From positions 192,001-256,000 of the forward strand of contig JBGARZ010000013.1 of NCBI GenBank assembly GCA_044229975.1: 64,000 bases of DNA. The letters are read 5' to 3'. Position 1 is the first letter of the stretch. Every line of letters begins with the position of its first letter. Positions 43,721 to 63,493 of the stretch are shown piece after piece. The position numbers and the translations under genes are program-made. This stretch comes from Polyangiales bacterium. Lineage in GTDB: Bacteria > Myxococcota_A > Polyangia > Polyangiales > Ga0077539. The notes beneath the pieces are model-generated. The model saw nothing but the letters and a program-made list of their open reading frames with translations, ran no database searches and had not been told where the DNA came from.

Positions 43721-43792
43721 GCGGGCGTAATTCAGCGGTAGAATGTCAGCTTCCCAAGCTGAACGTCGCCGGTTCGATCCCGGTCGCCCGCT
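43721..43792 (+). tRNA. tRNA-Gly (anticodon CCC)
   Basis: Acceptor stem GCGGGCG/CGCCCGC, anticodon stem TCAGC-TTCCCAA-GCTGA, T-loop GTTCGATCC, U discriminator; followed by CCG rather than CCA. Confidence 0.96.
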
Positions 43793-43806
43793 CCGAAGAT
43801 TCCTCT

Positions 43807-45117
43807 CTACTTTCGGCCCGTTGCGAGCTTAGCTCCAGCGGGCCGATCTTGGTTCTGGGGGTTCTTCACACCCCGCTTCACACCCCGACGGCCGTCGGGG
43901 CGAGCCATCGCCTCGCGCGCCCCGGCGAGGTCGACCACCTTCGCCAAGCCCGCGCGCTGCTCGGCCTCGGCGGGGCTGCTGTAGTGCTCCTGCATCGCCT
44001 CGGTGTGGTGCCCCGAGATCGACCGCGTGACCACGTTGGTGATCTCGGCGGCGCGCGCCAGGTCCTGGAACGTCCGCCGCATCGCGCGCGGCGTGATCTT
44101 CTTCCTCAGCCCCAGCGCCTTGTGGACGGCGGCGAAGGGCTTGGCCAGCACCGACGCGGCGCGGAACTTCCCCTGGCGCGACGGGAAGAGCAGTTCGCTC
44201 TCCTCCATCTTGCCCTCGGGCAGTTCGTCGGCGTGGCGGCGCAGGATGTCGACCAGCTCCTTCGGCACCGCGATGCGCTGCCGGTTGCCGGTCTTGGTGG
44301 TGTTCATCACCTCGTCGGTGCGGGTGTGCGAGCGGCGAACCAGCAGCACCCCCTCGTCCCACAGGACGTCGGCGTTGGGGCCCTGGCGGCGCAAGGCCCG
44401 CAACGACGAGGGCCTGAGCCCCGTCGCGAGGCCCAACACCACCATGGCGAAGTGCTGCGGGTAGAGCTCGTTCATCTTCTTGAGGAACGCCCGCCCCTCC
44501 TCCACGGTGAGCGCGTTGGGCTCCTCGTGGGTGTAGGCCGGGTGCTCCGAGGTGTCGAAGGGCTCGACCCCGGCGATGGGGTTCCGCTCCAGCTCGAACT
44601 CGTGCACCGCGGCGTTGAGGATCGACCGCAGCGCGCTGAACCAACTGTTGGCCGTGTGCGGGCTCAACGTGTCGGCCTTGATCCGCTTGGCGACGTCCGC
44701 CTTCCAGGCGATCACGTCCGCCCGGCGGATCGCGTCGACCTGGAGCCGGCCGAAGGTCGGGAAGAGGTGCTTCCTCATCACCGACGCGAACACCACGCGG
44801 CTGTGGGCGCCCTTCATGGTGCCGTCAGCGATCTTTCGTTCCATGAGCGAGACGCTGTAGACGCTGAAGGACGGCAGGGTCTGCACCTGCGTCCCCTGCC
44901 GGAGGCGCTGCTGCTCGTCCTCCAACCACGCCCGCGCTTCGAGGGCCGTGGCCACGTCGAGCGCCTTGAGGATCTGGTGCTGCTTGCCGGTGCGCGGGTC
45001 GGTCACCTTCCCGCGCACGACGAAGCCCAGGCTTTCCTCCCTCTTCCACACGCCGGGCAGCACCGGCTTCGCGCTGATCTTGAACCGCCATCGAGTCACC
45101 CACTTCGTTGCAGTCAT
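43807..45117 (-). CDS. Tyrosine recombinase/phage-type integrase
   Basis: TGLRPSSL (R), TKTG (K), PRAMRRTF (R), ISGH (H), MQEHY (Y); SAM-like core-binding domain; RBS GGAGG before ATG 45117. Confidence 0.92.
   Translation of the reverse strand: MTATKWVTRWRFKISAKPVLPGVWKREESLGFVVRGKVTDPRTGKQHQILKALDVATALEARAWLEDEQQRLRQGTQVQTLPSFSVYSVSLMERKIADGTMKGAHSRVVFASVMRKHLFPTFGRLQVDAIRRADVIAWKADVAKRIKADTLSPHTANSWFSALRSILNAAVHEFELERNPIAGVEPFDTSEHPAYTHEEPNALTVEEGRAFLKKMNELYPQHFAMVVLGLATGLRPSSLRALRRQGPNADVLWDEGVLLVRRSHTRTDEVMNTTKTGNRQRIAVPKELVDILRRHADELPEGKMEESELLFPSRQGKFRAASVLAKPFAAVHKALGLRKKITPRAMRRTFQDLARAAEITNVVTRSISGHHTEAMQEHYSSPAEAEQRAGLAKVVDLAGAREAMARPDGRRGVKRGVKNPQNQDRPAGAKLATGRK
43864..43887. repeat. 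Tandem 12-bp direct repeat, candidate integrase arm-type sites
   Basis: CTTCACACCCCG at 43864-43875 and 43876-43887. Confidence 0.6.
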
Positions 45118-45376
45118 CGGCTCGTCCTCCGTCGTCGTTGGAGGGCGCCGCCGTTGGTCCGGCGGGCACCATAGCGTCCGGCGAGGCGCCGCGCATGAAG
45201 GCCAGGACGGCCGATCGCTCGAAGACCATCGTGCCCTTGCCGCCGCGGCGGCCGGCGGGCACGAGGCGCTTCTCCATGACGGCCTTGCGGATCGCGCCGG
45301 TCGTCTTGTAGCGGCAGATATCCGCTGCCTCGCGGGTTGTGAGCAGCGCGGCGACCGTCTCGATGGGCTCACTCAT
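44825..45376 (-). CDS. Excisionase-like HTH protein (HTH_17/MerR-like N-terminus)
   Basis: LLTTREAADICRY..TGAIRKAV..KRL..AGRRGG...VFERSAVLAFM. Immediately upstream of the integrase; its tail overlaps the integrase in another frame. Confidence 0.72.
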   Translation of the reverse strand: MSEPIETVAALLTTREAADICRYKTTGAIRKAVMEKRLVPAGRRGGKGTMVFERSAVLAFMRGASPDAMVPAGPTAAPSNDDGGRADDCNEVGDSMAVQDQREAGAARRVEEGGKPGLRRAREGDRPAHRQAAPDPQGARRGHGPRSAGVVGGRAAAPPAGDAGADPAVLQRLQRLAHGTKDR

Positions 45377-45969: not shown

Positions 45970-47550
45970 TCACTCGACCTTGAACACAGGCAGCCACGCT
46001 CCCTGGCCGGCGTCGAACTTGATGCCGTCCGGCTCCAGGTCGAAGAACCGCGCCAAATCCCGCCGTAGACCGTAGACCGGTGCAGAATCCCTGGGCTCCA
46101 TCAGCACTCCCTCGCCGAGCAGTTTGGCCAACAGATCCTCCGACGCGACCGAGGTGACCACCGCCTTCAAGCGGAAGACCTCCCCAGCCCCCTGCGTCTC
46201 CGGCGTGCGTCCGCTGGCTGCGTCCTGTCGACCCTCGTCGTGCGGATGCCGAACCGTGACCTCGATCATTTCCTCCCACGCGCTCCGCTGAAGCCGGACA
46301 ATCAGGTCTGACCACGTCACCCCTACCGGCGTCCGGAAGCACGGGTCTGGGAGAGAGGTGATCTGAAACCGGAACCGGTAGGCCCTACCGTTGTTGGCGA
46401 TGCGCTGGGGCCCCTTCGGCACGCTTAAGATGGGGTCGCACTTCGTGCTCGGGACCGAGGGGAAGAGCCGTCGCAGGCGGGGGCGGAGCCGGCTCATCGG
46501 CTCCCTCGACATCGCTGGCGGTTTCCCCGCCGGACGGCCGCGCCCCCCGCTCGTGCCCTCGGTCGATGGCGATGGCGACGCAGCGCTCGCGACTTCCACC
46601 AGCAGTCTCCACAGTTTCGTGACCTCACCGGAACCCTCGTCCCGTCGGCCGTCAGCGAAGCCCGCCTCCGCGAAGTGCCGCCAGTGCCGCTCGCCTTGGA
46701 TCCGGGCGCACAAGTGCTTCTCGCCGACTCGAACATGGATGGCCTCCCACACGGTTCCTTCGGGAGTCGGGATGGGCCGGACGCGGCCCCGCGGCTGGGG
46801 GGCCGCAATCGCCGGGGTCACCGTGAGCGACGGCGATGGGGTGCCCCCCTCGCGTCTCACGAAGCCCGCCCCTGTCCACTGGAGCAGGTCGTTAAGCAGC
46901 AGCATCTCCGAACTGCGCGCGGTTGCGAGATCCGGCGCCACGGTGCCGAGCACCACCCCGACGACGCGGTCGAACCCCCCGGCGGCGTGCCCCGCCGTGT
47001 TCATGATGCGGTCAGCACCCTCCCAGGCGGGCCCGCGGATCAGAAATACGTCACGGTGCGGCGGCCCCGGCTCGGTGCCGAGGTGGAACAACCTCCCAGG
47101 GTCGAGCTCCCTCACCCGCCCGCGGGTCCCCAGGAGCGTTGCGGTCACCTTCGCCAACACTGGGAGGTCCACCTCCCAGAGCCGCACGAGGTTCGGCGTG
47201 ATCTCGCGGGTCTCTCCGTTGCGAGGACAGTGCGCAACCGCGCTCACGATGACGCCATCCGCCCGGTCGAGCACCACTGTGGCCCAGCACCAATCGCGGT
47301 CTGGATCCTCGGCGTACGGCTGGTACACCCCGCCCGGATCCCGTTGCTGCAACAACTGCGTGAGCTGCTTGTCGTACCGTGGGCGGCACACGGGGCAGTG
47401 AATCTTGCCGAGAGGCTCGACTTCGCGAACGACGCGTAGCGCGGCCCAGTGATTGAGGATGTTGAGGCCGACGTGAACTGCATCCTCGGGCCAGATCCGG
47501 GGGTCGTGCTCAGCGGCGCATCGACAGAGTAGGGCGGCGGCGTCGACCAT
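45970..47550 (-). CDS. Hypothetical element protein with N-terminal Cys cluster and duplicated TP.G..W domain
   Basis: Long ORF; HCPVC...WC...HCP; repeated PTPEGTVWEAIHVRV / RTPVGVTWSDLIVRL. Start could be 47592. Confidence 0.7.
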   Translation of the reverse strand: MVDAAALLCRCAAEHDPRIWPEDAVHVGLNILNHWAALRVVREVEPLGKIHCPVCRPRYDKQLTQLLQQRDPGGVYQPYAEDPDRDWCWATVVLDRADGVIVSAVAHCPRNGETREITPNLVRLWEVDLPVLAKVTATLLGTRGRVRELDPGRLFHLGTEPGPPHRDVFLIRGPAWEGADRIMNTAGHAAGGFDRVVGVVLGTVAPDLATARSSEMLLLNDLLQWTGAGFVRREGGTPSPSLTVTPAIAAPQPRGRVRPIPTPEGTVWEAIHVRVGEKHLCARIQGERHWRHFAEAGFADGRRDEGSGEVTKLWRLLVEVASAASPSPSTEGTSGGRGRPAGKPPAMSREPMSRLRPRLRRLFPSVPSTKCDPILSVPKGPQRIANNGRAYRFRFQITSLPDPCFRTPVGVTWSDLIVRLQRSAWEEMIEVTVRHPHDEGRQDAASGRTPETQGAGEVFRLKAVVTSVASEDLLAKLLGEGVLMEPRDSAPVYGLRRDLARFFDLEPDGIKFDAGQGAWLPVFKVE

Positions 47551-47762
47551 CGGCGTAGAGATCCTCGCGGCGGGGCCGACGATCGCTCTCACGGCCAGTG
47601 CACGATCGCAACCGCCGTCGCGGGCGACCGGTCCTCCGCGCCGTCGTTACCGGCCCTATGGCGGATGTCGCCGGACCAGAAACCCTCTGGTATTCCGGGT
47701 AAAAGAACATGGAGCGCAACGAGCGGCCCGCTGCCGCCCGCGCTCTAGAAGGAGCCCATCCC

Positions 47763-47897
47763 ATGAAGGACCTCGTCGAGTTCGTCCGCGCCGCCGTGGC
47801 CAACCACGGCCTCACCCTCACCAAGACCGTTCTCCGCTTCGGCGGCAAGACGGTCCGCCTCACGCTCCGCGTCGGCATCACCGACGACGCGGGCTGA
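47763..47897 (+). CDS. Small hypothetical protein (44 aa)
   Basis: RBS AAGGAG upstream; nearly all codons end in G/C. Confidence 0.55.
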   Translation: MKDLVEFVRAAVANHGLTLTKTVLRFGGKTVRLTLRVGITDDAG

Positions 47898-48021
47898 CCC
47901 ACCGACCGCCCGTCGCGCTCGGCCCGCCGCCCTACAGAAGTACGCCGTATTCCAGGCGTCTTGGGGGCGTCGTGCGTCCGCGGGCTCGGGCCCCAACCCA
48001 TTCACCCAGGAGTCCACAACC

Positions 48022-49179
48022 ATGCTCACGTTGCCCTCTCACGCCTCTCCGTCCGGCGCCTCCTCGCGCTTCGCCGCCGTCGCCCGCGACAAGCTCGGCG
48101 CCCTGATCGAGCGCGGTCGCACCCGCGCCGCCGCCGTGCTCGACCACGTCGAGCGCCACCAGCCCCGCGACCTCCTCGTCACCGCCGGGGAGCTCGCCTT
48201 CGAGCCCGACGCGGCGCGCCCCGGCGGGATCGTCGTCGTGCCCGACGAGGGCGTGACGATGCCGCTGCACCGCTTCGCGCTCGGCCAGGCCGCCGCCAAG
48301 GTGGGTCTGCCCCACGCCTACCTCGGGCGCCTGCTCGACCCCGAGCACCGGGCCTTCGGGCCCGAGCTGCTCGCCCACAGCCTGACGCGCCTCTACCGCG
48401 AGGGCCGCGCCGTCGCCGACGAGGAGGACGCGGGAGGCACCTTCCTCCTGCGCGCGCTCTCGCTCCCCGACCGCCGCGAGGTGCGGGGCTTCGTGAGCTC
48501 GCGCTTCCGGCGCCTCGACTCGCGCCCCGTCGTGGGGGCCTTCGCCCACGCCTGCCAGCAGATCGGCGCGGTGCCCGTCGAGGGCTACGCGCTCGACACC
48601 AAGATCGCGATCAAGGCCATCCTCGCGAAGGTCTACGAGCCCGTGCCCAACGAGGTGATGGTGTTCGGCATGGCGCTGGAGAACAGCGACTACGGCAACG
48701 GCGCCCTCCAGGTGTCGTTCTACTCGCTCCGGTTGGCCTGCGAGAACGGCCTCTTGATGGAGCGCTCGCTGCGTCGGGTCCACCTCGGAACCCGCCTCAC
48801 GGGTGACGTCGCGTGGAGCGCCCGCACGCTCGCGGCGGAGACCGAGGCGACGGCGGGCGCGGTGCACGATCTCGTCACGCGCCGCCTCAACGACCGCAAC
48901 ATCGCCGTCCTCCAGGACGGCATCCGCCGCGCGAACGACGAGCGAATCGAGCCCGCCCGCGTGCAGGACTTCCTCAAGAAGCACCTGCTCAAGGGGGAGG
49001 CCGAGGCCGTCGTCGCGGCGTTCAACTCGCCCGACGTCGAGAACATGCCCGCCGGGCAGACCCGCTGGCGCCTCGCGCAGGCGGTGAGCTGGATCGCGGG
49101 CAAGACCGAGGACGAGGAGCGCCGTCTCGACCTCATGCGCGTCGCGGGCAACCTCGTGCCGATGCCGGAGGCGGCGTGA
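48022..49179 (+). CDS. DUF932/DUF945-like (phage/plasmid LGT-associated) protein
   Basis: RGFVSSRFRRLD and FGMALENSDYGNGALQV...LRLACENGL...RRVHLG match the NS.DG..RL.C.NG pattern of this family; RBS AGGAG. Confidence 0.75.
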   Translation: MLTLPSHASPSGASSRFAAVARDKLGALIERGRTRAAAVLDHVERHQPRDLLVTAGELAFEPDAARPGGIVVVPDEGVTMPLHRFALGQAAAKVGLPHAYLGRLLDPEHRAFGPELLAHSLTRLYREGRAVADEEDAGGTFLLRALSLPDRREVRGFVSSRFRRLDSRPVVGAFAHACQQIGAVPVEGYALDTKIAIKAILAKVYEPVPNEVMVFGMALENSDYGNGALQVSFYSLRLACENGLLMERSLRRVHLGTRLTGDVAWSARTLAAETEATAGAVHDLVTRRLNDRNIAVLQDGIRRANDERIEPARVQDFLKKHLLKGEAEAVVAAFNSPDVENMPAGQTRWRLAQAVSWIAGKTEDEERRLDLMRVAGNLVPMPEAA

Positions 49180-49556
49180 TGAAGTACGCCGGACTCCTGC
49201 GGATCAAGGGCCTCCTCGACGGGTACTTGGCCGCACTCGCCGATGAGGGTCGGCAGGCCATGCAGGACGCGCTCGGGGAGTTCCTGGGCGAACACCCCGA
49301 GGTGCTGGCGATCGCCTGGTACCAGGGCGCGGGACTGAGCCACCTCACGTTCGAGTTGCGCGGCGGCGTGCGCTACCTCGCCGCCGAGGATCAGATCGTC
49401 GGCGCCGCAATGGACGACACCTTCGACACGTCGGCCTACGCGGCCTTCGCCGACGTCCTCTGGAACGCGCTCGACGTGCTCGTGGCGAAGTTCGGCTTCG
49501 ACGTGAACCTGCGCGCGACCCGCGAGGACATCACGGCGCTGCCGATCGCCGCGTAG
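49179..49556 (+). CDS. Hypothetical protein
   Basis: TGATG coupling to the upstream gene; GC3-biased 125-aa ORF. Confidence 0.7.
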   Translation: MKYAGLLRIKGLLDGYLAALADEGRQAMQDALGEFLGEHPEVLAIAWYQGAGLSHLTFELRGGVRYLAAEDQIVGAAMDDTFDTSAYAAFADVLWNALDVLVAKFGFDVNLRATREDITALPIAA

Positions 49557-49576
49557 GCGCCCACCTCCCAGCCCGA

Positions 49577-49702
49577 CGTGCGGCGCCCGGTGCCCTCGCT
49601 CTCGGAGCGGGCGCCGGGCGCCGCACGCCCCTCCCGCACCTGCCCTCGGAGCGACGACGAAGCCCCCGCGGTGACCCCCGGTGTGCTTCGTCGTCGCTCC
49701 GA
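49577..49702 (+). other. Two long intergenic hairpins
   Basis: 19-bp stem at 49577-49627 (one G-T pair) and perfect 18-bp stem TCGGAGCGACGACGAAGC at 49646-49702. Confidence 0.8.
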
Positions 49703-49746
49703 CCTTCCCGCTCGCCAGCGCCCCTTCCACCAAAGGAACCCTCACG

Positions 49747-50847
49747 ATGAACCTCGACACCCGACTCGCGCCCGAGCGCGAGCAGTCCGCTCCGGCGCCC
49801 GACGACGGCGCGCCGAGTCGCCTCTCCGTGGCGCCCGTCGACCCCTTCGCAGCGGTCGGCCTCGTCGGCACGTCACGACCCATGCAGCGCGTGCGAGCCG
49901 ACGTTCTGCGGTACGCCCGCTCGTCCGCGCCGGTGCTAGTCACGGGCGAGACCGGGACCGGCAAGGAGCTGGTCGCCCGCGCCCTCCACCTCGCGTCGCC
50001 GCGGGCCCGCGGGCCGCTCGTGACCGTCAACGTCGCGACCCTGCGGACCGAACTCGTCGCCTCGGAACTGTTCGGCCACGAGCGCGGCGCGTTCACCGGC
50101 GCCCTCACCCGGCGCCGGGGCGTCTTCGAGCAGGCCCACGGCGGCACGCTCTTCCTCGACGAGCTGGGCGAGCTCGACGCCCGCACCCAGGCCGACCTGC
50201 TGCGCGCGCTGGAGACCGGCGAGGTGCGTCCGCTGGGCTGCGAGCGCCCGCGCGCCGTCGACGTCCGCATCATCGCCGCCACCCACCGGGACCTCGGCGC
50301 GATGGTCACGGCGGGGTGCTTCCGCGCCGACCTCTACTACCGGCTGAACGTGCTGACCGTGGGGCTGCCCGCCCTGCGGGAGCGCCGCGCGGACCTCCCC
50401 GCGCTGGTCGAGCACCTCCTCGGTCGGCTCCGCCCCGAGGTCGGCGACCGTCGCCTCACCAGCGATGCGCTCGCCCTCCTCGTCCGCCACCCGTTCCCGG
50501 GCAACATCCGCCAGCTCTTCAACGTGCTGCGCCGTGCCCTGGTGCGCGACGAAGGTCTCGTCCTCGACGCCGCGGCCGTGGCCGACGCGTTGGCCGACGA
50601 GCCCGGCACGCCGGTCCCCTACCAGACGCCCGCCCGAGACCTCTCGGTCCCCGCCGTCGCCGAGGCCATGCAGGCGAGCGGCGGCTCCATCTCGGCCGCC
50701 GCGCGGCGCCTCGGCATCGCGCGGTCGACGCTGCGCGAGCGGCTGAACGCGAGCCGCCGCAGCGACGTCACGCAGATCCAAGGCGGCGGGCTTCCGCCCG
50801 TGGCGTGGGTCGCGGGCGCCGCCGCGCGCCCTACGGGGGACCCGTGA
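49747..50847 (+). CDS. Sigma-54-dependent activator (AAA+ and Fis HTH) without an N-terminal sensor domain
   Basis: [66 protein letters not shown]; only about 35 aa precede the AAA+ domain; RBS AAAGGA. Confidence 0.9.
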
Positions 50848-51191
50848 GCACCGCGCCCCCGCGGGCGTGGTCGCTCGGCCACAAGCTCGGCACGATCGAG
50901 CAGGCCGTCGAGGGCTCCGCCTCGGTGCTCGCGCGCATCCAGGACGCGCAGGGCGACCTGCACGCCATGCAAGCGTGGGCGTCGCAGGCGGAGGGCATGC
51001 TCGCGCTCGCGCACCGCCGTCTCCACGATCTCGGCCGGGTGTTGCGCGGCGAGCTCGCCCCAGCGCTTCTCGCGGCACCCCACAACGTCGTCGCCCCCGG
51101 CGCCGAGCCCCTGAACTCCGGCGAGGACGTCCTGTTCCCCGCACGGCTCGACGTCCGCGCGAGCCGCTCCGCGCGACCGCCCCATCGCTGA
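50844..51191 (+). CDS. Hypothetical helical protein translationally coupled to the sigma-54 activator
   Basis: GTGA overlap; heptad-like [46 protein letters not shown]. Confidence 0.6.
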
Positions 51192-51302
51192 CCAACCGCC
51201 TCGCTCGCTGCCCCGCCGCCGACCCGACTTCGGGGCGATGCCGGGTGCGCGGGCGCTCTCTCTTCCCCCAACGCTCACCCCAACCATCGTCACGAGGAAC
51301 CC

Positions 51303-52421
51303 ATGAACGCAGCACTCGCCATCGTCACCACCCTGACCACGTCTCTCTGCGCGTCGCTCGACCGCCGCGCCCTCGCCCTCGCCCTCACGCGCCTCAAGCA
51401 CGTCGTCGACCGCCGCGCCTCGCTGCCCGCGCTGGAGGCGGTGCTCCTCGCGGGCACCGGCGACGCCCTCCACCTCACCGCCACGGACGGCAGCGTCTTC
51501 GTGCGGGTCGTTGTGCCCGCGACGGTGACCTCGTCCTGGGCGTCGCTCCTGGTGCCCCTGCACCGCATCCTGGCGGTCGCCAAGGGGCCCGCCGGCCTGC
51601 TCCAGCTCGCCGGGGACCAGATCACCGCCAGGGGCGCCACGCACCGCCTCTCGGCCCTCCCCACGACGACCTTCCCGGCGGTGCCGCCGCCGGGCGGAGC
51701 GGTGCTCTTCACCCTCATGCGTCCGACGCTGGCGCGGGTGCTCCGGCAGGCCAGCTACGCGATGAGCTGCGACGACACCCGGCCGCACCTGGCGTCGATG
51801 CTCATCGAGCGTCGCCGCGGGGAGCTGCTGTTCGTGGCGACCGACGGCCACCGGCTCGCGCGGGTGAGCGTGCCCGACGACGGCGCCGAGTTCGCGGTGC
51901 TCGTCGGGCGCCGCACGGTCGAGTCCGTCGAGCGCATGCTGGCGGTGGACGGCGGGCTCGTCCGCCTCCGGCGCGAGAGCGACCGCGTGTGGTTCACCTC
52001 GGGCGACGAATGGGTCTCCGGGCCCGTCGTCGACGCGGTGTTCCCCAGCTACGAGCAGGTCATCCCGGCGCGCGCGGGAGGGAACCTCACGATGACCACG
52101 ACGGAACTCGCCGCCGCGATCCGCGCGGTGGCAGCGAAGGGGACGCCGACCGTGCGGCTGCGGCTCGACGGCGCCGCGTCGTCGGTCACGCTCTCCGTCG
52201 ACGACGGCGAGGGCAACGCCGCCGAGGCGGCCGTCGCCGCGACCTTCGAGGGCGCCGTACCCGAGGCCATCGGCATCAACGGGCAGTACCTGCGGGAGAT
52301 GGTCACGGCCCTCGCGGACGAGGGCGCGACGGTCACGATGCAGGTGACCGGCGAGCTCGACCCCGTGCGGGTGGACGGCACGCACGGCACGACGGCTGTG
52401 GCGATGCCGCTACGGGTGTAG
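51303..52421 (+). CDS. dnaN: DNA polymerase III beta sliding clamp homologue (element-encoded, divergent)
   Basis: RASLPALEAVLL, LTATD, DDTRPHL, VATDGHRLA, FPSYEQVIP, INGQYL, C-terminal AMPLRV; 372 aa. Confidence 0.88.
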   Translation: MNAALAIVTTLTTSLCASLDRRALALALTRLKHVVDRRASLPALEAVLLAGTGDALHLTATDGSVFVRVVVPATVTSSWASLLVPLHRILAVAKGPAGLLQLAGDQITARGATHRLSALPTTTFPAVPPPGGAVLFTLMRPTLARVLRQASYAMSCDDTRPHLASMLIERRRGELLFVATDGHRLARVSVPDDGAEFAVLVGRRTVESVERMLAVDGGLVRLRRESDRVWFTSGDEWVSGPVVDAVFPSYEQVIPARAGGNLTMTTTELAAAIRAVAAKGTPTVRLRLDGAASSVTLSVDDGEGNAAEAAVAATFEGAVPEAIGINGQYLREMVTALADEGATVTMQVTGELDPVRVDGTHGTTAVAMPLRV

Positions 52422-52436
52422 ATCTGGGCGAAAGTG

Positions 52437-52484
52437 GCGGGTGTGCGCTGGCGCGACCGAGACGTTGCGCCGGTGCACATCCGC
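52437..52484 (+). terminator. 21-bp stem hairpin after the clamp gene (terminator or 3' stabiliser)
   Basis: GCGGGTGTGCGCTGGCGCGAC pairs fully with GTTGCGCCGGTGCACATCCGC using 4 G-U pairs; lies between convergent genes. Confidence 0.55.
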
Positions 52485-52538: not shown

Positions 52539-52895
52539 TCAGGTCCGAGCGACCGAAAGAAGCACGCGCACGAGCTTCTCCGCCGCGTCCTGGACCTCGT
52601 CAGGCTGTGACGCCAACTGCGCGACGATGCGCTGCACCGGCGGCTTGAACCGCGCCGGCGGCAGGGCCTCGGTCCGAACCAGATCGCCCACCTCGACGCC
52701 GAGCGCCGCGGCCAGATTGGCCAGCGTGGCGATCGTCGGCACGCGCGTACCGTTCTCGATGCGGTTCACGGCGTCCAGGCTCACGCCCGCGCTCTCGCAG
52801 AGTTGCTCCTGGGTGAGCCCCCGGGACGCGCGGAGCTCGCGCAGTCGGGCGCGCACGACCTCCTCGATCGTCTGACGGCGGACTCGACGCGGCAT
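52539..52895 (-). CDS. XRE-family HTH transcriptional regulator
   Basis: RLRELRASRGLTQEQL...VSLDAVNRIENGTRVPTIATLANLAAALGV. Confidence 0.9.
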   Translation of the reverse strand: MPRRVRRQTIEEVVRARLRELRASRGLTQEQLCESAGVSLDAVNRIENGTRVPTIATLANLAAALGVEVGDLVRTEALPPARFKPPVQRIVAQLASQPDEVQDAAEKLVRVLLSVART

Positions 52896-52911: not shown

Positions 52912-52963
52912 GGAGCACAGCCTCGCGACAGTGACAGGAGCACATGAACGAGTTATGTGCTCC
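52912..52963. promoter_or_regulatory. Candidate XRE operator
   Basis: GGAGCACAT-N9-ATGTGCTCC (52937-52963) plus an extra half-site GGAGCACA (52912-52919), between divergent genes. Confidence 0.6.
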
Positions 52964-53022
52964 GGCACAGAACCGACGGGTCGTGCCGCTGTCGGCCGTC
53001 GTCGGGGCGTAGGGGACCAGGG

Positions 53023-55467
53023 ATGATGGGACAGATCACAGGCAGGGCATGGGCACCGATCGGCAGACCGTTCGCGGCTGCGGGCCTCCTCGCGATGTCC
53101 GTCGCGGGCGGCGCGAGCGCGCAAACCTCACAAGCGTTCGCTAACCTCGCGTCCCGCGCGACCGACGCGCCCGGAGAGCCCGCGCGCTTGACGGCCCCGT
53201 TCTTCCAGACGTGCGAGGATCTCGGAGACGACGCGCGCCTCGCCGCGTGCCAGCGGTCGCTCGACGCACTGCGGGCGCAGCGTCGTGCCGCGACGTATCG
53301 GATGCGCCTGCGGGGCCGTGCCGCTGTGGGGACGAACTACCTGGTGCGCGTGGGCGCGTACAACCCGATCGACCACCGCGTGCCGATCGAAGTCGGCCCG
53401 CTGGTCTTCGGCGCGTTGTTCCACACCCCGGGCCACTCCAGCGGCGCGCTGAGCACCGTTCCGAGCGTGCGCGGGGCCTTTCCCAGCACCCCAGTTCTCC
53501 AGGGCGGCTATCGCGTTCAGGACGACCAGGCAGGGCTCGACTTCACGAACCGTCACCACCTCGGCGCCGGCTTCGGGGTCGACGTCGTCTTTCGGTTGGC
53601 GACGCCGTGGGAAGATCATGTGGGGGCCGGAGCATCGGCCGAGGTGCGCGAGGGCGTCACGCTGGACGTCTTGGCGATTCGCGTCGTCGAGTTGAACGAC
53701 GGCTTGGAGGTGCGCGGGACACTCGATCGCCTCTACGACGCCACCTTCGACGCGGCCGCTGGCGAGCCGGTCATCATGGAGCGCGTGGGCTCGGGGCGCG
53801 ACGCCCAGCCTTCGACCGCGCCTGCGGTCGAGTCGAGAGGTGATGCGGCCGCGCCAACGGAGGTCGGCACGCCCCCGGCGGGAGAGCCCTCCTGGCGCGC
53901 GCCGCTGTCGAGCGCCGCGCTCCAGCACCTCGGCGGCTCCCGAGAGGCAGTCCTGGCCCAGCTCGCCCGCGAGGGCGGCTCCTGCCGTGAGATCGCGGGT
54001 GGGTTCCGAGGGCAGCCCGCGTCGGTCTGCCGGGGCCTCGGCGCGACGACCGGCCTGGAGCGCGAGTCGCCGGAGGTGACGCTCGTCTTCGACGGCGACC
54101 ACCTGCGCAGCCTCATGGTGCTCCTCGGTCGGGACGCCGCTCAGTCCGAGGCGGTCGACGCGTATCGGCGGGACGCTGCCTTCTGGTCGGCGCGGTTCGG
54201 CCAGCAGCCGCCCCCAGGGCCCCACGACCGGCCCGAGATCATTCGCTACGAGGTGGGCGGCGCGACCATCCGAATCGTCCTCACCGCCGCGCAGGGGAGC
54301 GGCGGCGGATTCCTGCGCATGCTCCTGGTCGAAGAGAGGGACTTCGCCCTGCGACAGGACGCGATCTCGCGCGGCTACGTGCCCAACGTGACCTGCGGGC
54401 TCCGGGGCACGCTCGACGAACGCGCGCTCGACTGCGCCCGCCCCGTCGCACAGGGAGGAGCCGGGCCGGCGGCGGTGCGATCCTTCGAGGTCACGGAGTC
54501 AGGCCAGCCGCGACGATTCCTGAGGTACCGATTGATCCGCCAGGAACCCGACGGGACGCGCGTCTGGCTGACAGGGCACAGCGGCGCGTTGGCGGCGGTG
54601 ATGCGCCCGGCGCGGCGCGAGGAGGCGCTCCGTCACTGCGCCCAGATGCCGCAATGGGCAGAGCTGGGCGCCGTGCCTCCCGGTACGATGCACGCGTTGC
54701 AGCAAGGGCAGGACTCCGCCCGCGAGCTCGCCGAGCTCTTCCCCGACGTCGTCTCCCCCATGCGGTCGGAGTGGTTCTGGGCGGGCACCCAGTGGGGGCG
54801 GGAGGTGTCGATCCAACTCGGCGACGGCTACGGCACCGGGCGGCGAACGCCGTTCATCCGGGCCAACCAAGGGGCGCCGTCGAGCGAGCCGCTGAGGTAC
54901 TTCTGCCAGGCATCGACGACCACGGACACACGGGCGCCTGCGGGGCGTGCAATCTTCGCGGAGTCCGAGGTCGACTCCGACGCCCCGTGCGGCCTGTCCG
55001 GCAGCGTCGAGGAGCGACAGAGCGACTGCGCGCAACGGCTCGGCGAGGCCGCCAACTACCCCCTTCACGCACCCGCCGGAACGGCCCCTTGGCGGATCGT
55101 CTCCCAGACCGTGCAGGGCGAGCGTGTATGGCGCGAGCCTGGGTCCAATCGTGTCTGGTTCTACGTGCCGGAATCGGCCCGCCTGAACGACGCTTCCGCC
55201 GTCTGCGCCGTGCCTGCCCGGGCACAAGGCCGCCGCGCCTACCTGCCGCTCCCGGCGCGGCTGCCGACGGGCGCGGAGTTTCGCGACGCGGCGGTGCTCG
55301 GACTCAACCGGGTGCTCCTGACGGACCCTCCACAGTATTGGAGCGCGTCCTCGCGGCCCGGGCGACTCCTCGTGTTGGGTTGGGAGGGCGCCGCGAGGTG
55401 GTATGAACCCCACTCGCCTGGACTCCCTGCGGAGCTGCCATTCTTCTGCGTCGCAGACGCACCTTGA
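53023..55467 (+). CDS. Secreted multidomain protein with two C-terminal DUF1566/Lcl-like (C-type-lectin-fold) repeats
   Basis: Signal-like AAAGLLAMSVAGGASAQ; repeats CGLRGTLDERALDC and CGLSGSVEERQSDC; last repeat has RLPTGAEF..YWSAS..FFCV. Confidence 0.65.
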   Translation: MMGQITGRAWAPIGRPFAAAGLLAMSVAGGASAQTSQAFANLASRATDAPGEPARLTAPFFQTCEDLGDDARLAACQRSLDALRAQRRAATYRMRLRGRAAVGTNYLVRVGAYNPIDHRVPIEVGPLVFGALFHTPGHSSGALSTVPSVRGAFPSTPVLQGGYRVQDDQAGLDFTNRHHLGAGFGVDVVFRLATPWEDHVGAGASAEVREGVTLDVLAIRVVELNDGLEVRGTLDRLYDATFDAAAGEPVIMERVGSGRDAQPSTAPAVESRGDAAAPTEVGTPPAGEPSWRAPLSSAALQHLGGSREAVLAQLAREGGSCREIAGGFRGQPASVCRGLGATTGLERESPEVTLVFDGDHLRSLMVLLGRDAAQSEAVDAYRRDAAFWSARFGQQPPPGPHDRPEIIRYEVGGATIRIVLTAAQGSGGGFLRMLLVEERDFALRQDAISRGYVPNVTCGLRGTLDERALDCARPVAQGGAGPAAVRSFEVTESGQPRRFLRYRLIRQEPDGTRVWLTGHSGALAAVMRPARREEALRHCAQMPQWAELGAVPPGTMHALQQGQDSARELAELFPDVVSPMRSEWFWAGTQWGREVSIQLGDGYGTGRRTPFIRANQGAPSSEPLRYFCQASTTTDTRAPAGRAIFAESEVDSDAPCGLSGSVEERQSDCAQRLGEAANYPLHAPAGTAPWRIVSQTVQGERVWREPGSNRVWFYVPESARLNDASAVCAVPARAQGRRAYLPLPARLPTGAEFRDAAVLGLNRVLLTDPPQYWSASSRPGRLLVLGWEGAARWYEPHSPGLPAELPFFCVADAP

Positions 55468-56152: not shown

Positions 56153-57763
56153 CTATCGGTGTCGAAGGAACGACTTATGAACCCTCAGAGTCACCCTCCC
56201 ATCGGGTAGCACGTGAAGTCGTGCGCCGAGCTGACCGAACTTCACCACGCTCCACATCGAATAGAAGCGCTTGAGCACGCCGATTTCCCAGTAGCTCCTC
56301 AACCGCCTCCATTCAACGGATTCAACGTCAGGCGGCATGAGTTGCCATCCAAGAGATATGGCGCGATCGCCGACCCCCGCTTTGACCTCCTGAAGTGGGA
56401 CACTCCAGTTCGGCGGCAACAGTGGTCCCCCGACAATCCTTAGACACGCTGCGATCAAGCGCATTGCGATCGCGGATGCAACCTCTGAGCTTTCAACGAG
56501 AACACTCGTCCACCACTCGCGCGACATTAGACGAAAATACAGGAAGTCCTTCCAAAGAGTCACGGTCATCGACTCCGGGAGCGGCAACTGGATCGACGCG
56601 CTGAACGGCAGAGTGTCCGCGCCCTGTGCCAACCAGGCGCTGACACCTTCCTCGGTCGACTCGCGAGCTACTGGTTCTGCCAGTGGGACTGACTCCCATT
56701 CGACGCCATATTCGCGAGGGTCAATTTCAGCCAAAGGCCCAGGCAGCTCGATGTCGAGGCCTTTTGCTCTAGTCGCGAAACGCAAGTATGCACTCCAGAA
56801 AGCTCTCACCGCATCGCTGCCAGGCTCGGTCCGTCGCGCAAGCCATGCCACGGTAAGCTCGCAAAGGCGCGACAATCTGTCTCTTGCCGAGAAGATATCA
56901 CGTGCTGCCAATGCCTGCGCCCAGCCCCGGTATGCAAGAAACCAAGTCTGGTCGCCGTCGTATCCTCCTCCTAGCGCGAGAAACCCGGGGGCATTGGGCA
57001 TTGTCACAAGCACGATGTGACAGCCAACAGGCACGCAAGTCCAGCAGGCACGGCCTGCGGTGCGGCACTGCCTCGGCGTCCTGTATCGACTATCGCTTCT
57101 GAGGGAATCAATCCGACCGTCGAGGGCAAGGAAGGCAATGGCGACTCCGCCGCTGACAGGGAATGGAACGATCGTACCCTTTGGAAGGACAAGCGAGTGC
57201 TGCTGAGGAGCGAAGCTCTGTCCTACATACGCCAGTTGAGGCAGCGCTCGCGCTCTACAGACAGCAGCGGAGGTACATGGCTGCAACCAAGTCCACTTCG
57301 CCACCTTGTCCCGCAAGTCCAAGAAATCAAACACCTCGGTCGACTTCACCTCGACCGCAGAAATTGCACCCGCAGCACGGACTAGGAAATCGGGCTGCGG
57401 AAACACCGCCCCTTTGACGACCTGTCCTTTGCCGTGCTGCCACGAGACGACTCGCACGATATCCTGGCCTCGGCTGCGACCCACGACGAACGACAAGACC
57501 TCTCCCAACTCCCCCAGTCGGGATCCGCTCATGCCGCGCGCTTTGCTGCGATAGAGACCTTGCACATAACGTTCGGCATCGGCAAGGAGCCCCTCTGCGT
57601 CTAACTCGATCTCGTCAGCAATAATGTCGAGAGCGTGGTCGTCGATAGACACCGTCACCAAACTGCTTGCAGCGGAGAACGTACTCAGCCACGGCGACTG
57701 ATTGGGCGCCTCCACTACACCGAACAATGGCGCTTGCACTTGCTTGATCTGGAATGTGTGCAT
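56153..57763 (-). CDS. Putative PD-(D/E)XK nuclease-domain protein (candidate defence gene)
   Basis: GELGE helix, QPDFLV and AVEVKS; Cys cluster CRTAGRACWTC...CH; visibly lower GC than the flanks. Confidence 0.72.
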   Translation of the reverse strand: MHTFQIKQVQAPLFGVVEAPNQSPWLSTFSAASSLVTVSIDDHALDIIADEIELDAEGLLADAERYVQGLYRSKARGMSGSRLGELGEVLSFVVGRSRGQDIVRVVSWQHGKGQVVKGAVFPQPDFLVRAAGAISAVEVKSTEVFDFLDLRDKVAKWTWLQPCTSAAVCRARALPQLAYVGQSFAPQQHSLVLPKGTIVPFPVSGGVAIAFLALDGRIDSLRSDSRYRTPRQCRTAGRACWTCVPVGCHIVLVTMPNAPGFLALGGGYDGDQTWFLAYRGWAQALAARDIFSARDRLSRLCELTVAWLARRTEPGSDAVRAFWSAYLRFATRAKGLDIELPGPLAEIDPREYGVEWESVPLAEPVARESTEEGVSAWLAQGADTLPFSASIQLPLPESMTVTLWKDFLYFRLMSREWWTSVLVESSEVASAIAMRLIAACLRIVGGPLLPPNWSVPLQEVKAGVGDRAISLGWQLMPPDVESVEWRRLRSYWEIGVLKRFYSMWSVVKFGQLGARLHVLPDGRVTLRVHKSFLRHR

Positions 57764-58897: not shown

Positions 58898-61106
58898 TCA
58901 CTCCGTGACCGGAGTCTTCACCAACAACAACCACTGGAACACAGCCTCCACCCCACGCGCGTAGGCCTCGTCGGACACGTCCTCCGGCAGCCCCCCCAGC
59001 GCCCGCTTCACGCGCGCCCGCACCTTGTCCCGGAGTTGCTGGTGGAGCTTCCAGTCGAGGGACATCACCTTCGCGACCTCGCCCGGCAGCGCCTTCGCCA
59101 CAGCGGTGAGCGCCTCCTTGGGCGCGTCGCCCACGGCCCGCGCGAGGACGTCGCGGAACGCCAACTCATGCTCCGAGAGGCCCTCGCGCTCGGCGCGCGT
59201 CGACTCCGTCTTCAGCGTGCCGAGCAGCTTCACCAACTCCGCGAAGAAGGCCTCGGCGTTGTCGATGCCCTCGTTGTACCGCGCCACCAGCGCCTCGAAG
59301 CGCGCCTGGAGCTCGTCCCGCGTCGGGTTCGCCTGGAGGAGGTTGTTGAGCGCCCGCCGCACGACGGTCTGGAGGCTCATCGCGCTGGCGTTGGGCGTCT
59401 TCTGCTGCTGCGCGATCGCGTTCGCCAGGCCGTCCACGTCCAGGCGGCGCAGGTCGAGCGGCGCGCGTTCGTAACCCGGCGACCAGCCCTCGGTCACGCG
59501 GTGGACGACCACCGACTCGGCCAACATCGCCCGCACGCGGTCGACGTACTCGCTCACGTCGGGGCGGTCGATGGTGGCCCGGATGTAGCCCGCCACGTCT
59601 GTCAGGAACCCGTGCCGGAGCGCGAAGGGCTTCACCACGTCGTCGAGCACCATCGCCGAGAAGATCCGGTCGACGAGGTTCACCTGGGCCAGGAAGTTCC
59701 GCCGCCGATCGTCCGGGTGGATCAGCGCCTCCTTGGCTGCGTTGCGCAGCGCGAGCCGGTCGGCGAGCGAGACGTTCGGCGGCTCGCGTGGGTCGACGCC
59801 CGCGTCGCGCACCATGGTCTCGGCCGCGTCGATGGACCGCGCGAGCGCCGCGATCAGCGCCTTACGGGGTTGCACCGGGGTCGCGCCCGCCGGGGCGCCG
59901 GGCCGGTTGGCGTAGATCGACAGCGCGCTCCGCAGGTCATGGAACACCCCCGCGTAGTCGACGATCATCCCGCACGCCTTGCCCGCGTCGACGCGGTTGG
60001 CGCGCGCGATGGTCTGCATGAGCGTGTGGTTGCGCATCGGCTTGTCGAGGTAGATGACGTCGCAGCTCGGCACGTCGAAGCCCGTCATCCACATGCCGCA
60101 GACGAACACGATCCGCAGCGGGTGTTTCGGGTCCTTGAAGCAGGCGTCCAGGGCCGGCGGCTCGTTGATCCGCTTGCGGATGGGCACGATGTCCAGGGGG
60201 AAGCCCTGGAGGTTCGTGGTCGTGACCTTGTGGTTCTTGAAGTCGTCGACCTCGCCCTGCGACTCCGAGATCACCGGCGCCATCTCGGTCGCGCGCATCC
60301 AGGCGATGAGCTCGGCCAGGTCGTCCCGGCGCGTGGACCCCTCGGGCAGCGCCGCGTGCTCGGCCTCCAGCGCCACGAGCCGGGCGTCCCAGTGGCGCTT
60401 CACTCGCACCGACATTTCGACGGCGGTGAAGCGGTCGATCGAGACCACCATCGCCTTGCCGCGCGAGGTGCGCGACGTGTAGTGCTCGACCAGATCGCGG
60501 GCGACCTCGTCGAGCCGCGCGTCGTCCGTGATGAGGCTGTAGAGCTTCGCAAGCTCGCGCCGCAGCACCCGCGCCTCGTCGGGGTCGAGCGTCGCAGCCT
60601 CCAGCATCTTGTAGACGCGCTCGCCCAGCTCGGCGTCGGCGAGCTCGATGCGGGGCAGGCGGTTCTCGTAGTAGAGCGGAACCGTGGCCTCGTCGGCGAT
60701 CGCCTCCTCGAAGGGGTAGATCGAGAGGTAGTCGCCGAACTTGACCTTCGTCTCCCCGTCGGCGGACTTCGACGGCCCGTGAGCCCTGTCCACGTCGACC
60801 AGCGGCGTGCCCGTGAAGGCGAGGTAGCGCGCGTTGGGGAGGGCGTCGCGCATGTTGCTCGCGAAGGTGTCGTACTGCGAGCGGTGCGCCTCATCGGCCA
60901 TCACGACCACGTCGTCGCGGGTCGAGAGCGTGGGGTAGGTGGTGCCCTTCACCTCGGTCGAGAACTTCTGGATGAGCGTAAACACGTAGCGCTGGTCACC
61001 TCGGAGCAGCTCGCGCAGGTGGTCGCGCCCCTGGGCCTGCACGAGCACCTTACGCCCCTGCTTCGCGTCGGGCGCCCGCACGGCCCCGGCCGACACGAAA
61101 GTCTTA
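58898..61106 (-). pseudogene. hsdR: Type I restriction enzyme HsdR, C-terminal part (interrupted by IS)
   Basis: TLIQKF, DEAHRSQY, FTGTP, GKAMVV, MWMTGFDVP, YLDKPM..HTLMQTIARANRV, IVDY. Confidence 0.92.
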
Positions 61107-62441
61107 GGGCGTCGCAGTTTTCTCGTCGGGGTGCTGGTGCGTTCAGTGCGCTCCGTCGCCCCGCACGGCCTTCGGCGCGCAGAGGATCTCCACGAACCAC
61201 GCTTCCAAGCCCGCGAGACGCTGGACCTGCGCCTCGACTTTCGCCATCGCCGCACGCGTGAGCGAGATCCCCTTGGCGTACGTCGTGGTGACCAGTTGCA
61301 CGACGGGCGCGACCCCTTTCCAGGTCATGGTCTGAGCGAAGTTCACGACCGTCTCCACGGTGTCCAAGATGCTCCCATTCCAGTGCTGTTCGAGGACGCC
61401 CCAGCAGCGCTCCACGGGGTTGTACTTGCTGTGGTACGGCGGGTAGTAGGCGAGGCGTACGTTGATCCGATGGGCCTGCGCAAAGGCCACGATCCGCGAC
61501 AGAAACTGTGTGCGACGGCTCTGGTTTTCGGGCCCGTTGTCCTGAAGCAAAAGGAGCGTATCGACCTCCGGAAAGCGCGCCCGGTGAGCGCACCACCACG
61601 CCTCGATCCGATCGACGATGAAGTCCGCCGTGACGGGCCCCGTCGCCAGAGACACCGTCAGCTCGTTGTGGGCTGTGAGCAGGATGCCGTACGGCGTCAC
61701 CTTCGCCTCGGCCCCGTGGTCGTGATCGAGCGCAAACACCAGCACGCGACTGACGCCGTACCGAGAGAACTCCCCCACCTTGATGACGGCCTTGGCGTCC
61801 ATCGACAGTTCCAGCACGTTGGGCGAACGCGCGGCCGTCGCCCGCTCACGACTCATCTGTTCGAAGATGGCGTCCGTCGCGGCGACCTTTTTTTCGGCTT
61901 GGTCTTGGCCACGGCGCGCAGCCCATATCCCAGGTCGTTGAGCTTGACGCGGATCGTCTCCTCACACGGCAACTCCTCGTCCGTGTACCCCTTCTGCGCG
62001 ATGAGTTGCCGACGGACTTCGGCCGACGTGATGCGTGTGTAGAGCCGCTGCGTTTGAAAGCGCGGATCGGTCTGACTCTGACCATCGACGAGGTCGCGCA
62101 GATCCCGCATCAGGTTCGGCAGTCGCGATTGCGCCGTCGGACGTCCGCCGCCGGAGCGACCGTCGAGGCACTCGATCCCGGAGCGCAGCTCGTTCTTGCC
62201 TTTGCGCAACGTCCGCTCGTCCCAGTCGAGCGCGCGAACGGCTCGGTTCATCACGCCGTCGAACAGGTCGCGCACCGTCCGCGCCATGAACCGCCGACGT
62301 TCGCTGCCCTTCAAGGCGGCGGCCGTCTCCTTCAACACCTTCGTCACGTTGGTCGCGAGTTGCATGCCCGACTGCCTGGGAGCTCTGGCGAGCGCTGGAC
62401 ACCCTACGCCCGTTCAGCCCGAGCACTTTGCTGCGGCGCCC
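61107..62441 (-). mobile_element. ISAzo13-family insertion sequence (1335 bp)
   Basis: Terminal inverted repeats GGGCGTCGCAG / CTGCGGCGCCC (1 mismatch in 11); 3-bp target duplication TTA at 61104-61106 and 62442-62444; excision restores the hsdR frame (DDQIYKTFVSAG). Confidence 0.92.
61143..62365 (-). CDS. ISAzo13-family (Rhodopirellula-type DDE) transposase, two ORFs joined by a -1 frameshift
   Basis: OrfA LKGSERRRFMA..SQTDPRF..LYTRIT; A7G tract at 61887-61894; OrfB TDAIF..LSMDAKA..DHD..DNGPEN..YYPPYHSKYNPVERCWG.LE.HWNG. Confidence 0.92.
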
Positions 62442-63493
62442 TTATAGATCTGGTCGTCGAGGTCGTCGCGATCGGTGATCACCACGAAGGTCCAGTTGCC
62501 CGGCACCTTCCGCAGCGCCTTCTGCGAGAAGAACACCATCGAGTAGCTCTTGCCCGAGCCCTGCGTGTGCCAGAAGACGCCGAGGGGCGTACCCTTGGAC
62601 GGCGCCCCCACTCGGCGCGACGGGGCTTGGGTCTTCGATCGGCGTAGCGCCTCGACGGCGTTGTTCACGCCGAGGAACTGGTGGTTCTGCGCGACGATCT
62701 TCGCGAGGCCGCCGGGCACCTCCACGAAGAGCGTGAAGTTCTCGATCAGGTCGAGCATCCGCGCCGGGTCGCAGACGGCGCGCAGGAGGGTCGCCTGCCC
62801 GGGTGCCGGTGGCTCATCCTCGCGGGCGACGCGCTTCCAGGGCTTGAAGTGCTCCCAGCCGCTGGTGAGCGTTCCCAGGCGCGCATCGCTCCCCTGCGCG
62901 AACATCACGAGCGCGTTGAAGAGGAAGAGGCGCGGGATGGTCACGCGGTAGTCGGTGAAGTTCTCGTCGAAGGCCGCGCGCAGCGGGACGTCGGGAGACT
63001 TGAGCTCTACGAAGAGCAGCGGCAGACCGTTGACGAAGCCCACGAGGTCCGCCCGGCGGGTGTACACGTCGCCCCGCAGCTCGAACTCGCGCACGGCCAC
63101 GTAGCTGTTGCGCGCAGGCGTGTCCCAGTCGATCACGCGCACCCGCACCGTTTCGGTGCCGCTGTCGTCGGTCTTCACCTCCACCGGCACGCCGTCGCGC
63201 AGGAGCGCGTAGAGTTCCTGGTTGGCGCGTTCGAGCGAGAGTGCGCTGCGGTCGCGCAGGAGCTCGTTGAGCGCGGCCTCACGCGCCCCTGCGGGGACCG
63301 TGGGGTTCAGCACCTCGACCGCCTCGCGCAGTCGTCGCGGGAGCACGTGCTCGGTGTTGCTGCCCCGGCCGTAGGTCGACACCGCCCCACCGAAGGTCTC
63401 CTTGAAGCCGTTGTCGACGGTCCAGTGGAGCGCTTCGAGCTGCCCTTGGAAGACTGTGGCGACCGCCTGCTCCTTAAGGTTCGCGGAGGTCAT
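62414..63493 (-). pseudogene. hsdR: Type I restriction enzyme HsdR, N-terminal part (truncated by IS)
   Basis: RRADLVGFVNGLPLLFVELK nuclease motif, NHQFLGVN, FWHTQGSGKS Walker A, VITDRDDLDDQI; the frame ends inside the IS. Confidence 0.92.

Follow-up and report, generated by a model that had tools for sequence, protein, structure and literature searches.

A conserved candidate early operon with a sensor-less sigma54 activator, a DUF932-like protein and a divergent sliding clamp in integrative elements of myxobacteria-like bacteria

Several described systems come close to parts of the locus reported here. They include satellites of the integrase–AlpA–primase type, to which the PICI also belong; HrpR/S, a sensor-less activator with a trans-inhibitor, HrpV; and GriR, an extra DnaN that gives antibiotic self-resistance, the peptide pocket of the clamp being the drug-binding site. 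PspF is a group IV sensor-less activator and is inhibited in trans by PspA (PMC6003685), and in Salmonella an AAA domain on its own is enough to activate almost every sigma54 promoter (PMC3844500). Among the genes of plasmid leading regions, the DUF945/YubP family (YubP/YafZ, DUF932) ranks third, with 4661 members at a median position of 1 from oriT, and its anti-restriction label rests on one structural match (PMC11541004); phage Mu uses the host clamp for late transcription (PMC12867686). This study concerns a 64,000-nucleotide stretch (the window, G000:C10:192001-256000) of the genome of a Polyangiales bacterium (10 Mb, 71% GC), in which an integrative element carries an operon of six genes, among them a DUF932-like gene, a sensor-less sigma54 activator and a second beta sliding clamp. 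An earlier note on the window, made from its letters alone, had proposed a module that engages host sigma54 transcription and the replisome on entry or excision. The analysis indicates that the operon is likely to let an active element borrow the transcription and replication machinery of its host, in myxobacteria-like bacteria.

The six open reading frames (ORFs) are co-oriented on the + strand, as that note had described, within an element that is indeed integrated at a tRNA gene (tRNA-Gly(CCC), with a 47-bp att repeat and an integrase), and all six are coding under a codon model trained on the host. The note's assignments to the DUF932-like, sensor-less sigma54 activator and second DnaN families were also right. 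The first gene (47763..47897) specifies a 44-aa protein that matched no known family and stands first in 8/8 operon starts. It is followed by the gene for a 385-aa DUF932/phrog_1362-like protein (48022..49179), for which the phrog_1362 match is clear (E 3e-31) and the match to Pfam PF06067 (DUF932; E 8.8e-5, 22.8 bits) lies just under the gathering cut-off of 23, relatives scoring 19.6–22.7 bits. The third product, of 125 aa (49179..49556), is a distant member of the phage families phrog_9564/10375 (function unknown; profile search E 1e-7 to 1e-3) and has lost their QYTPxFNDGD motif. The fourth gene (49747..50847) encodes a sigma54 enhancer-binding protein of 366 aa with Sigma54_activat (E 4e-64), AAA lid and Fis helix-turn-helix (HTH) domains. 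Because its AAA domain begins at residue 39, it has no sensor domain. The Walker A, GAFTGA, Walker B, YYRL, sensor II and Fis HTH elements are intact, and GAFTGA is invariant in 11/11 activators compared. A 115-aa helical protein (orf115; 50844..51191) comes next, and the last gene (51303..52421) encodes the 372-aa clamp, with three DNA_pol3_beta domains, a TIGR00663 score of 144 bits against a cut-off of 137.65, and 29% identity to the host chromosomal DnaN, whose gene is on contig C23.

Structure searches added little for the smaller proteins, atlas searches giving no usable match for the 115-aa and 125-aa products. The model of the DUF932-like protein (pLDDT, the predicted local distance difference test, 90.5) had no Foldseek match at E 0.001, and a viral scan with this single protein as query gave no match. 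Its residues 47–161 resemble RPA/CST-type OB folds in the model (Z 5.5–6.0; for the best match, at Z 6.0, rmsd 3.8 over 89 aligned residues), a likeness below the tool's meaningful level that might faintly hint at single-stranded DNA binding.

Whether the genes co-occur elsewhere had been left by the earlier note as the means of refuting it, and they do. The operon is present in seven elements of six genomes of family f1: beyond the window it was found (genome:contig) in G004:C152, G002:C177 and G007:C1085, of the same genus, and in G012:C4, G041:C61 and G041:C5, of a second genus. In G044 the operon start (promoter, small ORF and DUF932-like gene) and a clamp fragment lie on two short contigs, and with that genome included 7 of the 31 family genomes hold the operon or fragments of it. 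A profile of the small ORF was also run against a sample of 370 other genomes of the order and picked up no real member there, its one match (E 4e-4) being an unrelated gene. The small ORF, the DUF932-like gene, the 125-aa family and the clamp are kept in 7/7 operons and the activator in 6/7. The flanking integrases, replication genes and defence cargo change between elements. A PolA-type polymerase is carried in G004, G002 and G041:C5, and Prim-Pol with D5 in G041:C61, so that a primase and/or PolA-type polymerase is present in the fetched stretch of 4/7 elements; the cargo includes DISARM (DrmD, DrmMI) in G012 and a DUF499/HmaC-like system in G004.

All six genes are under purifying selection. 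Under MG+F3X4 codon models, with 3–8 sequences per set, omega (the ratio of non-synonymous to synonymous rates) was, in gene order, about 0.2, 0.10–0.12, 0.07–0.13, 0.16, 0.21 and 0.23, and likelihood-ratio tests against an omega of 1 gave a 2dL (twice the gain in log-likelihood) of at least 38 in every case, the 44-aa gene giving 38. The genes are thus not decaying, the other outcome by which the note had allowed itself to be refuted. Nei-Gojobori ratios were rejected because a GC content of 0.91–0.97 at third codon positions deflates the synonymous rate, and an IQ-TREE omega of 1.000 for the 44-aa gene proved to be an unmoved start value, the grid optimum being about 0.2. The operon copy in G002 carries frameshifts; host genes nearby on that contig are also split, so that an assembly error is likely, decay being the less probable alternative.

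These recurrences can also be read as an array of slots, filled by early genes that are each useful independently and share a single strong promoter, with activator, clamp and DUF932 uncoupled, which we consider unlikely. The order of the genes differs between the two genera. Between genera the activator is 62–65% and the clamp 53–58% identical, and the DUF932-like and 125-aa proteins are 23–25% and 25–29% identical; since the latter two are the slowest genes within a genus, they appear to have been replaced by distant subfamilies. The activator of G041:C61 is fused to the start of its neighbour, and the G007 operon has lost the activator, so that the genes need not work together, and continues with a recombination-type pair that includes a PD-(D/E)XK nuclease. 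The idea of a six-gene module stands in part: the block recurs, though not as an inseparable unit, with the activator missing once, the DUF932-like gene swapped, and the activator–DUF932 pair found mostly without a clamp. Nor was support found for orf115 as the activator's partner. It has matches in 5/7 elements, adjacent to the activator in three and several kb away on the opposite strand in two, and belongs to an element-linked family of 46 clusters, similar in size to the clamp clade. Against an uncoupled array stand the four genes kept in every operon and the activator's DUF932-like neighbour, which persists even after subfamily swap and reversed order. A phrog_22961-like protein with a PD-(D/E)XK-type nuclease (and an ORF of 68–78 aa) was seen at L014:4208-5622, L388:4567-6395 and L398:5694-7302; this set adjoins the operon or the pair in both element families and is probably a recombination cassette.

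As judged by sequence comparison, the older core of the operon is the pair of sensor-less activator and DUF932-like gene, which was found at 23 loci in 15 genomes of three families. The activator search, in which only five candidates were scored per genome, gave 18 matches at E 1e-118 or better, spread over 12 of the 401 genomes sampled from the order, and a co-oriented DUF932-like gene lies within 2.2 kb in 17 of the 18; the exception, L367, has about 110 extra N-terminal residues and is on a 3.4-kb contig. Thirteen of the 18 were found by activator similarity alone (12 of these with a DUF932-like neighbour) and the other five were first reached via DUF932 or the clamp. Five further pairs came from a search from the DUF932 side, and G002 adds one. 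The loci are kin and not independent, so the counts do not amount to a statistical test. Nineteen sensor-less activators and L367 form one clade (FastTree support 0.93) with none of 52 host activators inside. In a 401-genome phylum sample no further high-scoring activator appeared, distant members scoring like ordinary activators and so being liable to escape. At eight loci the pair lies downstream of a Replic_Relax relaxase and a TrwB-like coupling protein (four by Pfam, four by BLAST), both of which are present in sister-family elements, and orf115 was found near the activator in no relaxase-type locus. At L394:7939-10182 (G043:C7) the activator is followed by two tandem DUF932-like genes of different subfamilies.

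The DUF932 side is looser, which favours the uncoupled array. Of 20 fetched loci of the second DUF932 subfamily, nine lack an activator, several of them ending at contig edges. For the first subfamily, the best 80 of 116 viral and the best 80 of 389 metagenomic distant loci were compared, 31 of the latter being at least 10 kb long; a clamp is present in 0/80 and 2/80, respectively, and a convincing activator in none. By sequence reading, the neighbours that recur in these 160 loci resemble ParB, primase, RecA and nuclease genes. No conserved PspA-like trans-inhibitor was found beside the activator.

The clamp belongs to a group of its own. Its relatives, at 42% identity or more, fill about 48 database clusters and are set apart from ordinary clamps, for which identity is about 30%; genomic context was seen for a minority of these clusters. 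The 43 near-full-length members form a clade (support 1.0, stem 0.76) apart from 22 family chromosomal clamps, and of 118 viral clamp loci found, none of the 80 kept for comparison falls within it (24–33% identity). The model predicts a complete three-domain fold (pLDDT 90; template-modelling (TM) score 0.8–0.87 against solved clamps). The peptide pocket (TDGHRL, FPxY, MPxR) is 86–100% conserved in the 43, position 370 varying between M and L, and 10 of 16 basic helix positions tested are R/K in 91–100%. The helices that carry these residues face DNA in solved clamps. By fold and pocket, then, it is a regular clamp; by the canonical dimer-interface residues it is not.

In Escherichia coli the dimer is stabilised by I272/L273 and by contacts R103–E304 and R105–E301/E303, mutation of I272/L273 weakens it, and delta prefers beta that is monomeric or carries I272A/L273A to the dimer (PMC12269063). 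In the clade the segment corresponding to residues 266–284 spans 19 positions in 43/43 clamps, three fewer than the 22 positions of 22/22 family chromosomal, 30/34 other cellular and 65/78 phage clamps. The deletion sits at the end of the I272/L273 helix, the lost turn holding the equivalents of these residues, and domain I is 5–6 residues shorter. The F106 equivalent is His in 43/43; those of R103, R105 and E304 are lost together, and N305 and E308 are new, invariant-like interface residues. This remodelled interface is seen in no chromosomal and few phage clamps among those compared. An unrelated second clamp (29% identity) was seen in a prophage-like recombination region at L208:388-7336 (G024:C192).

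The chief rival of a self-selective ring is a clamp decoy, which the shortened helix without its I272/L273 equivalents fits equally well: a weak dimer or monomer would soak up delta, polymerase III or Hda and slow host or phage replication while the activator reprogrammed sigma54 transcription, making the operon a true takeover or interference module. The loss of the F106, R103, R105 and E304 equivalents and delta's preference for monomeric and I272A/L273A beta agree with it, and the several elements with a PolA-type polymerase of their own would not need host polymerase III. We nevertheless regard it as rather unlikely, since the basic inner-helix residues, all three domains and the new interface residues stay conserved, and domains II–III alone would suffice for a decoy. 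Both halves of the ion pairs were lost in concert and their replacements are conserved, which speaks for a new self-selective interface and not a lost one. We think it likely that the clamp forms a self-selective ring and that the activator drives host sigma54 promoters in trans.

The regulatory DNA gives some idea of how the operon may be switched on. Upstream of it lies a two-box promoter-like motif on the + strand (47677..47705; GAAA, 14–15 bases, GGGTA), present in 7/7 aligned elements and in G044 (L219), with CAAA for GAAA in one element. It would appear to be a sigma70-family-like pattern and not a sigma54 −24/−12 one; its 40 matches genome-wide, 17 of them intergenic, formed no recognisable regulon. 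A predicted 5' leader hairpin (47710..47754, + strand; RNAalifold −15.9 kcal/mol, 11 pairs) ends at a GAAGGAG ribosome-binding site. This hairpin and the GGAG site are common to all seven aligned elements, the single-sequence z being only −1.3 to −2.5; two apparently compensatory pairs were not counted because they stem from a 2-base indel. Purine-rich ribosome-binding sites precede the four genes that have spacers, which agrees with the strong sites that had been noticed before. The structured spacers reported with them were borne out before the activator alone, where two long hairpins (49577..49703, + strand), a predicted attenuator or RNA-processing site, give a z of −8.9 in one comparison with shuffles and −7.55 in another (0/200 shuffles fold as well); z is −3.9 to −8.9 in all five elements having this spacer. 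The window's other two spacers do not stand out from shuffles in this way (z −1.2 ahead of the DUF932-like gene, z −0.04 ahead of the clamp), and 9 of 40 host control spacers reach z < −2.

No conserved sigma54 site was found in the operon spacers, and an insensitive scan of nine element stretches for the −24/−12 consensus gave two weak matches, neither ahead of a gene. The targets of the activator would then be host promoters, reached in trans. Of 14 non-clamp loci, five (L324, L325, L326, L394, L395) have a DnaA box (at most one mismatch; chance <3% per locus) 117–147 bases upstream of the activator, against 0/7 clamp-operon promoters; by eye, a sigmaA-like −10 box follows it. From sequence, the relaxase-type operons may respond to DnaA. 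The sequence QADLL in the activator, which resembles the clamp-binding consensus, was considered as a clamp-binding motif and rejected because it lies within a core AAA helix.

We put at about an even chance the reading that this is a conserved early or establishment operon of a satellite-like integrative element, which borrows host machinery to establish and copy the element. Its own promoter, of a non-sigma54 type, would turn the operon on when the element excises or enters a host. The sensor-less activator would be controlled by its amount, which the hairpins before its gene would limit. The clamp would homodimerise via its altered interface without mixing with host DnaN. Its conserved pocket would allow the clamp loader of the host to load it, and on element DNA that the element's primase has primed it would recruit polymerase III or repair enzymes of the host. 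The DUF932-like protein may protect or process element DNA, as has been suggested for its plasmid leading-region homologues. A stronger form, in which an orthogonal clamp or decoy and an always-on activator that rewires the host sigma54 regulon make up a two-armed takeover module, built on a previously undescribed activator–DUF932 partnership in two element families, is possible but doubtful.

Several results weigh against the preferred reading of an establishment operon, the missing activator in G007 and the shortened clamp interface among them. The activator–DUF932 pair is mostly found without a clamp, and a clamp is absent from all relaxase-type loci. Chromosomal DnaN has an omega of 0.05, the element clamp evolving about four times faster. 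The polymerases and primases that the elements encode showed no convincing clamp-binding motif, and we know of no demonstrated activity for DUF932. Since the sigma54 scan gives only 12 matches in 1.1 Mb of host DNA, sigma54 promoters in the element could have been missed. Among sequencing runs, 17 hold <10% of the words and four mapped runs show only short pieces of relatives, so that the pieces in RNA libraries are not evidence of operon expression.

A clamp clade with an intact pocket and a rebuilt interface would offer a clamp made orthogonal by nature, or else a naturally occurring inhibitor of the clamp hub; this hub is a target of antibiotics and is of use in building synthetic replication systems. 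Carried by mobile elements in hosts with about 60 such activators, a sensor-less sigma54 activator would give a parasite a route to programmes of development and stress response; in the window's genome there are one rpoN and 62 sigma54 activator matches, the element's own included. The tight activator–DUF932 linkage also provides a handle on DUF932, among the commonest of plasmid leading-region genes and one whose function has not yet been shown.

The integration site of the element, tRNA-Gly(CCC) (43721..43794, + strand), was identified by ARAGORN, and in G004 a different element occupies the same site. The attL core (43751..43797, + strand), the 3' 47 bp of the tRNA gene, is repeated exactly as attR on contig C15 (G000:C15:206625-206579), so that the element extends over at least 33 kb on C10 and 5.8 kb on C15, at least 39 kb overall, across an assembly gap. 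On the − strand follow a tyrosine integrase (43807..45117; PF00589 E 2e-9, phrog_1 E 2e-37) and an HTH_17 ORF, excisionase/AlpA-like (44825..45376; PF12728 E 1.8e-4, 22.2 bits, under the Pfam cut-off). A D5/DUF5906 primase-helicase (PF19263) lies at the C15 end, and a UvrD-PD-(D/E)XK protein is also carried. Beyond the operon is an XRE-family regulator (52539..52886, − strand), with a 76% identical copy in the G041:C5 element. No structural phage genes were found among the element ORFs scanned against PHROGs, and one query each for a relaxase and a coupling protein found no match in the window's genome, which is 93% complete, with the element spanning a gap. Four element ORFs had no family match: 45970-47592 (−), 52957-55467 (+), 56153-57763 (−), which sits in a dip to 58% GC, and 58034-58870 (−), which has a 46% identical homologue in a relaxase-type element of G011.

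Related loci were seen at this site and elsewhere. At L209:7561-11706 (G014:C46) a 794-aa protein with a clamp-like domain lies beside an integrase 49% identical to that of the window, and this locus adjoins the host genes that flank tRNA-Gly in the window's genome. At L385:1960-5657 (G020:C29) the same host locus holds another element, with a DUF932-like gene and a different integrase and, in the fetched stretch, no clamp or activator, which marks the tRNA-Gly site as a mobile-element hotspot. A second integrated element of the window's genome (L380, G000:C26:140000-158000) has a DUF932-like gene of the other subfamily and no activator or clamp.

The defence cargo of the window element is a type I restriction hsdR gene (58898..63493, − strand) split by an ISAzo13-family insertion (61104-62444), identical copies of which lie on C19 (one) and C36 (two); the restriction subunit has thus probably been inactivated by a recent jump. 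The type I restriction–modification, DISARM (DrmD, DrmMI) and DUF499/HmaC-like cargo of these elements raises the question of whether the operon is itself an anti-phage system, with the clamp or DUF932-like protein as the sensor of phage replication and a response turned on by the activator. In PADLOC the activator best matches the part of RtcR_PspF2 that lacks CARF (339 bits), and in Variovorax a DUF932 gene of an integrated plasmid was mutated after phage exposure (10.1101/2025.06.20.660599). That match reflects the shared AAA–HTH architecture, though; the other five operon proteins have no PADLOC match, no effector domain is present, and the position of the operon, next to core genes of the elements and to relaxase/coupling genes, agrees with a backbone role. 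A defence function is very unlikely on this evidence.

In the literature on DUF932, clamps, mobile elements and phage-encoded activators, with few subscription papers covered, no description of the combination was found. Each part is of a familiar kind, and mobile early-gene arrays as such are known; no published account turned up of the activator–DUF932 pairing or of the interface-remodelled clamp clade. In plasmid leading regions, too, a gene of DUF932 type stands close to the start of an array of early genes (PMC11541004), and this confirms the earlier note's statement that such genes are typical of leading regions, the family being a top one there. The relatives of the pair described here follow relaxase and coupling genes, with ParB-like and PD-(D/E)XK neighbours. 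The supplementary files of that study that were searched hold no sigma-54 or clamp term, and the window element differs in that neither relaxase nor coupling protein was detected in its genome (one query each). With the integrase–AlpA–primase satellites PICMI (PMC10803314) the window element shares the PF00589 integrase, the PF12728 HTH (sub-cut-off), the PF19263 primase-helicase, the att repeat, defence cargo and the absence of structural genes among the scanned ORFs. It differs in its size of at least 39 kb, where PICMI have a small, co-localised core, in lying at tRNA-Gly and not downstream of fis, in having its primase at the opposite end, in carrying an activator and a clamp, and in having no known helper phage.

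Phage beta clamps (phrog_947; the Corndog cluster O mycobacteriophages, PMC4351075) are likewise second clamps on mobile genomes, but most have an interface of normal length, and no DUF932-like gene or activator lies near any of the 80 kept for comparison. Like a GriR producer, the window genome has a divergent second dnaN, but no biosynthetic cluster lies near the element clamp and its pocket is unchanged. With PspF-type activators the element activator has in common the AAA domain and Fis HTH without a sensor; it scores 227 bits against the PspF cut-off of 444 and forms part of a separate clade carried on mobile elements.

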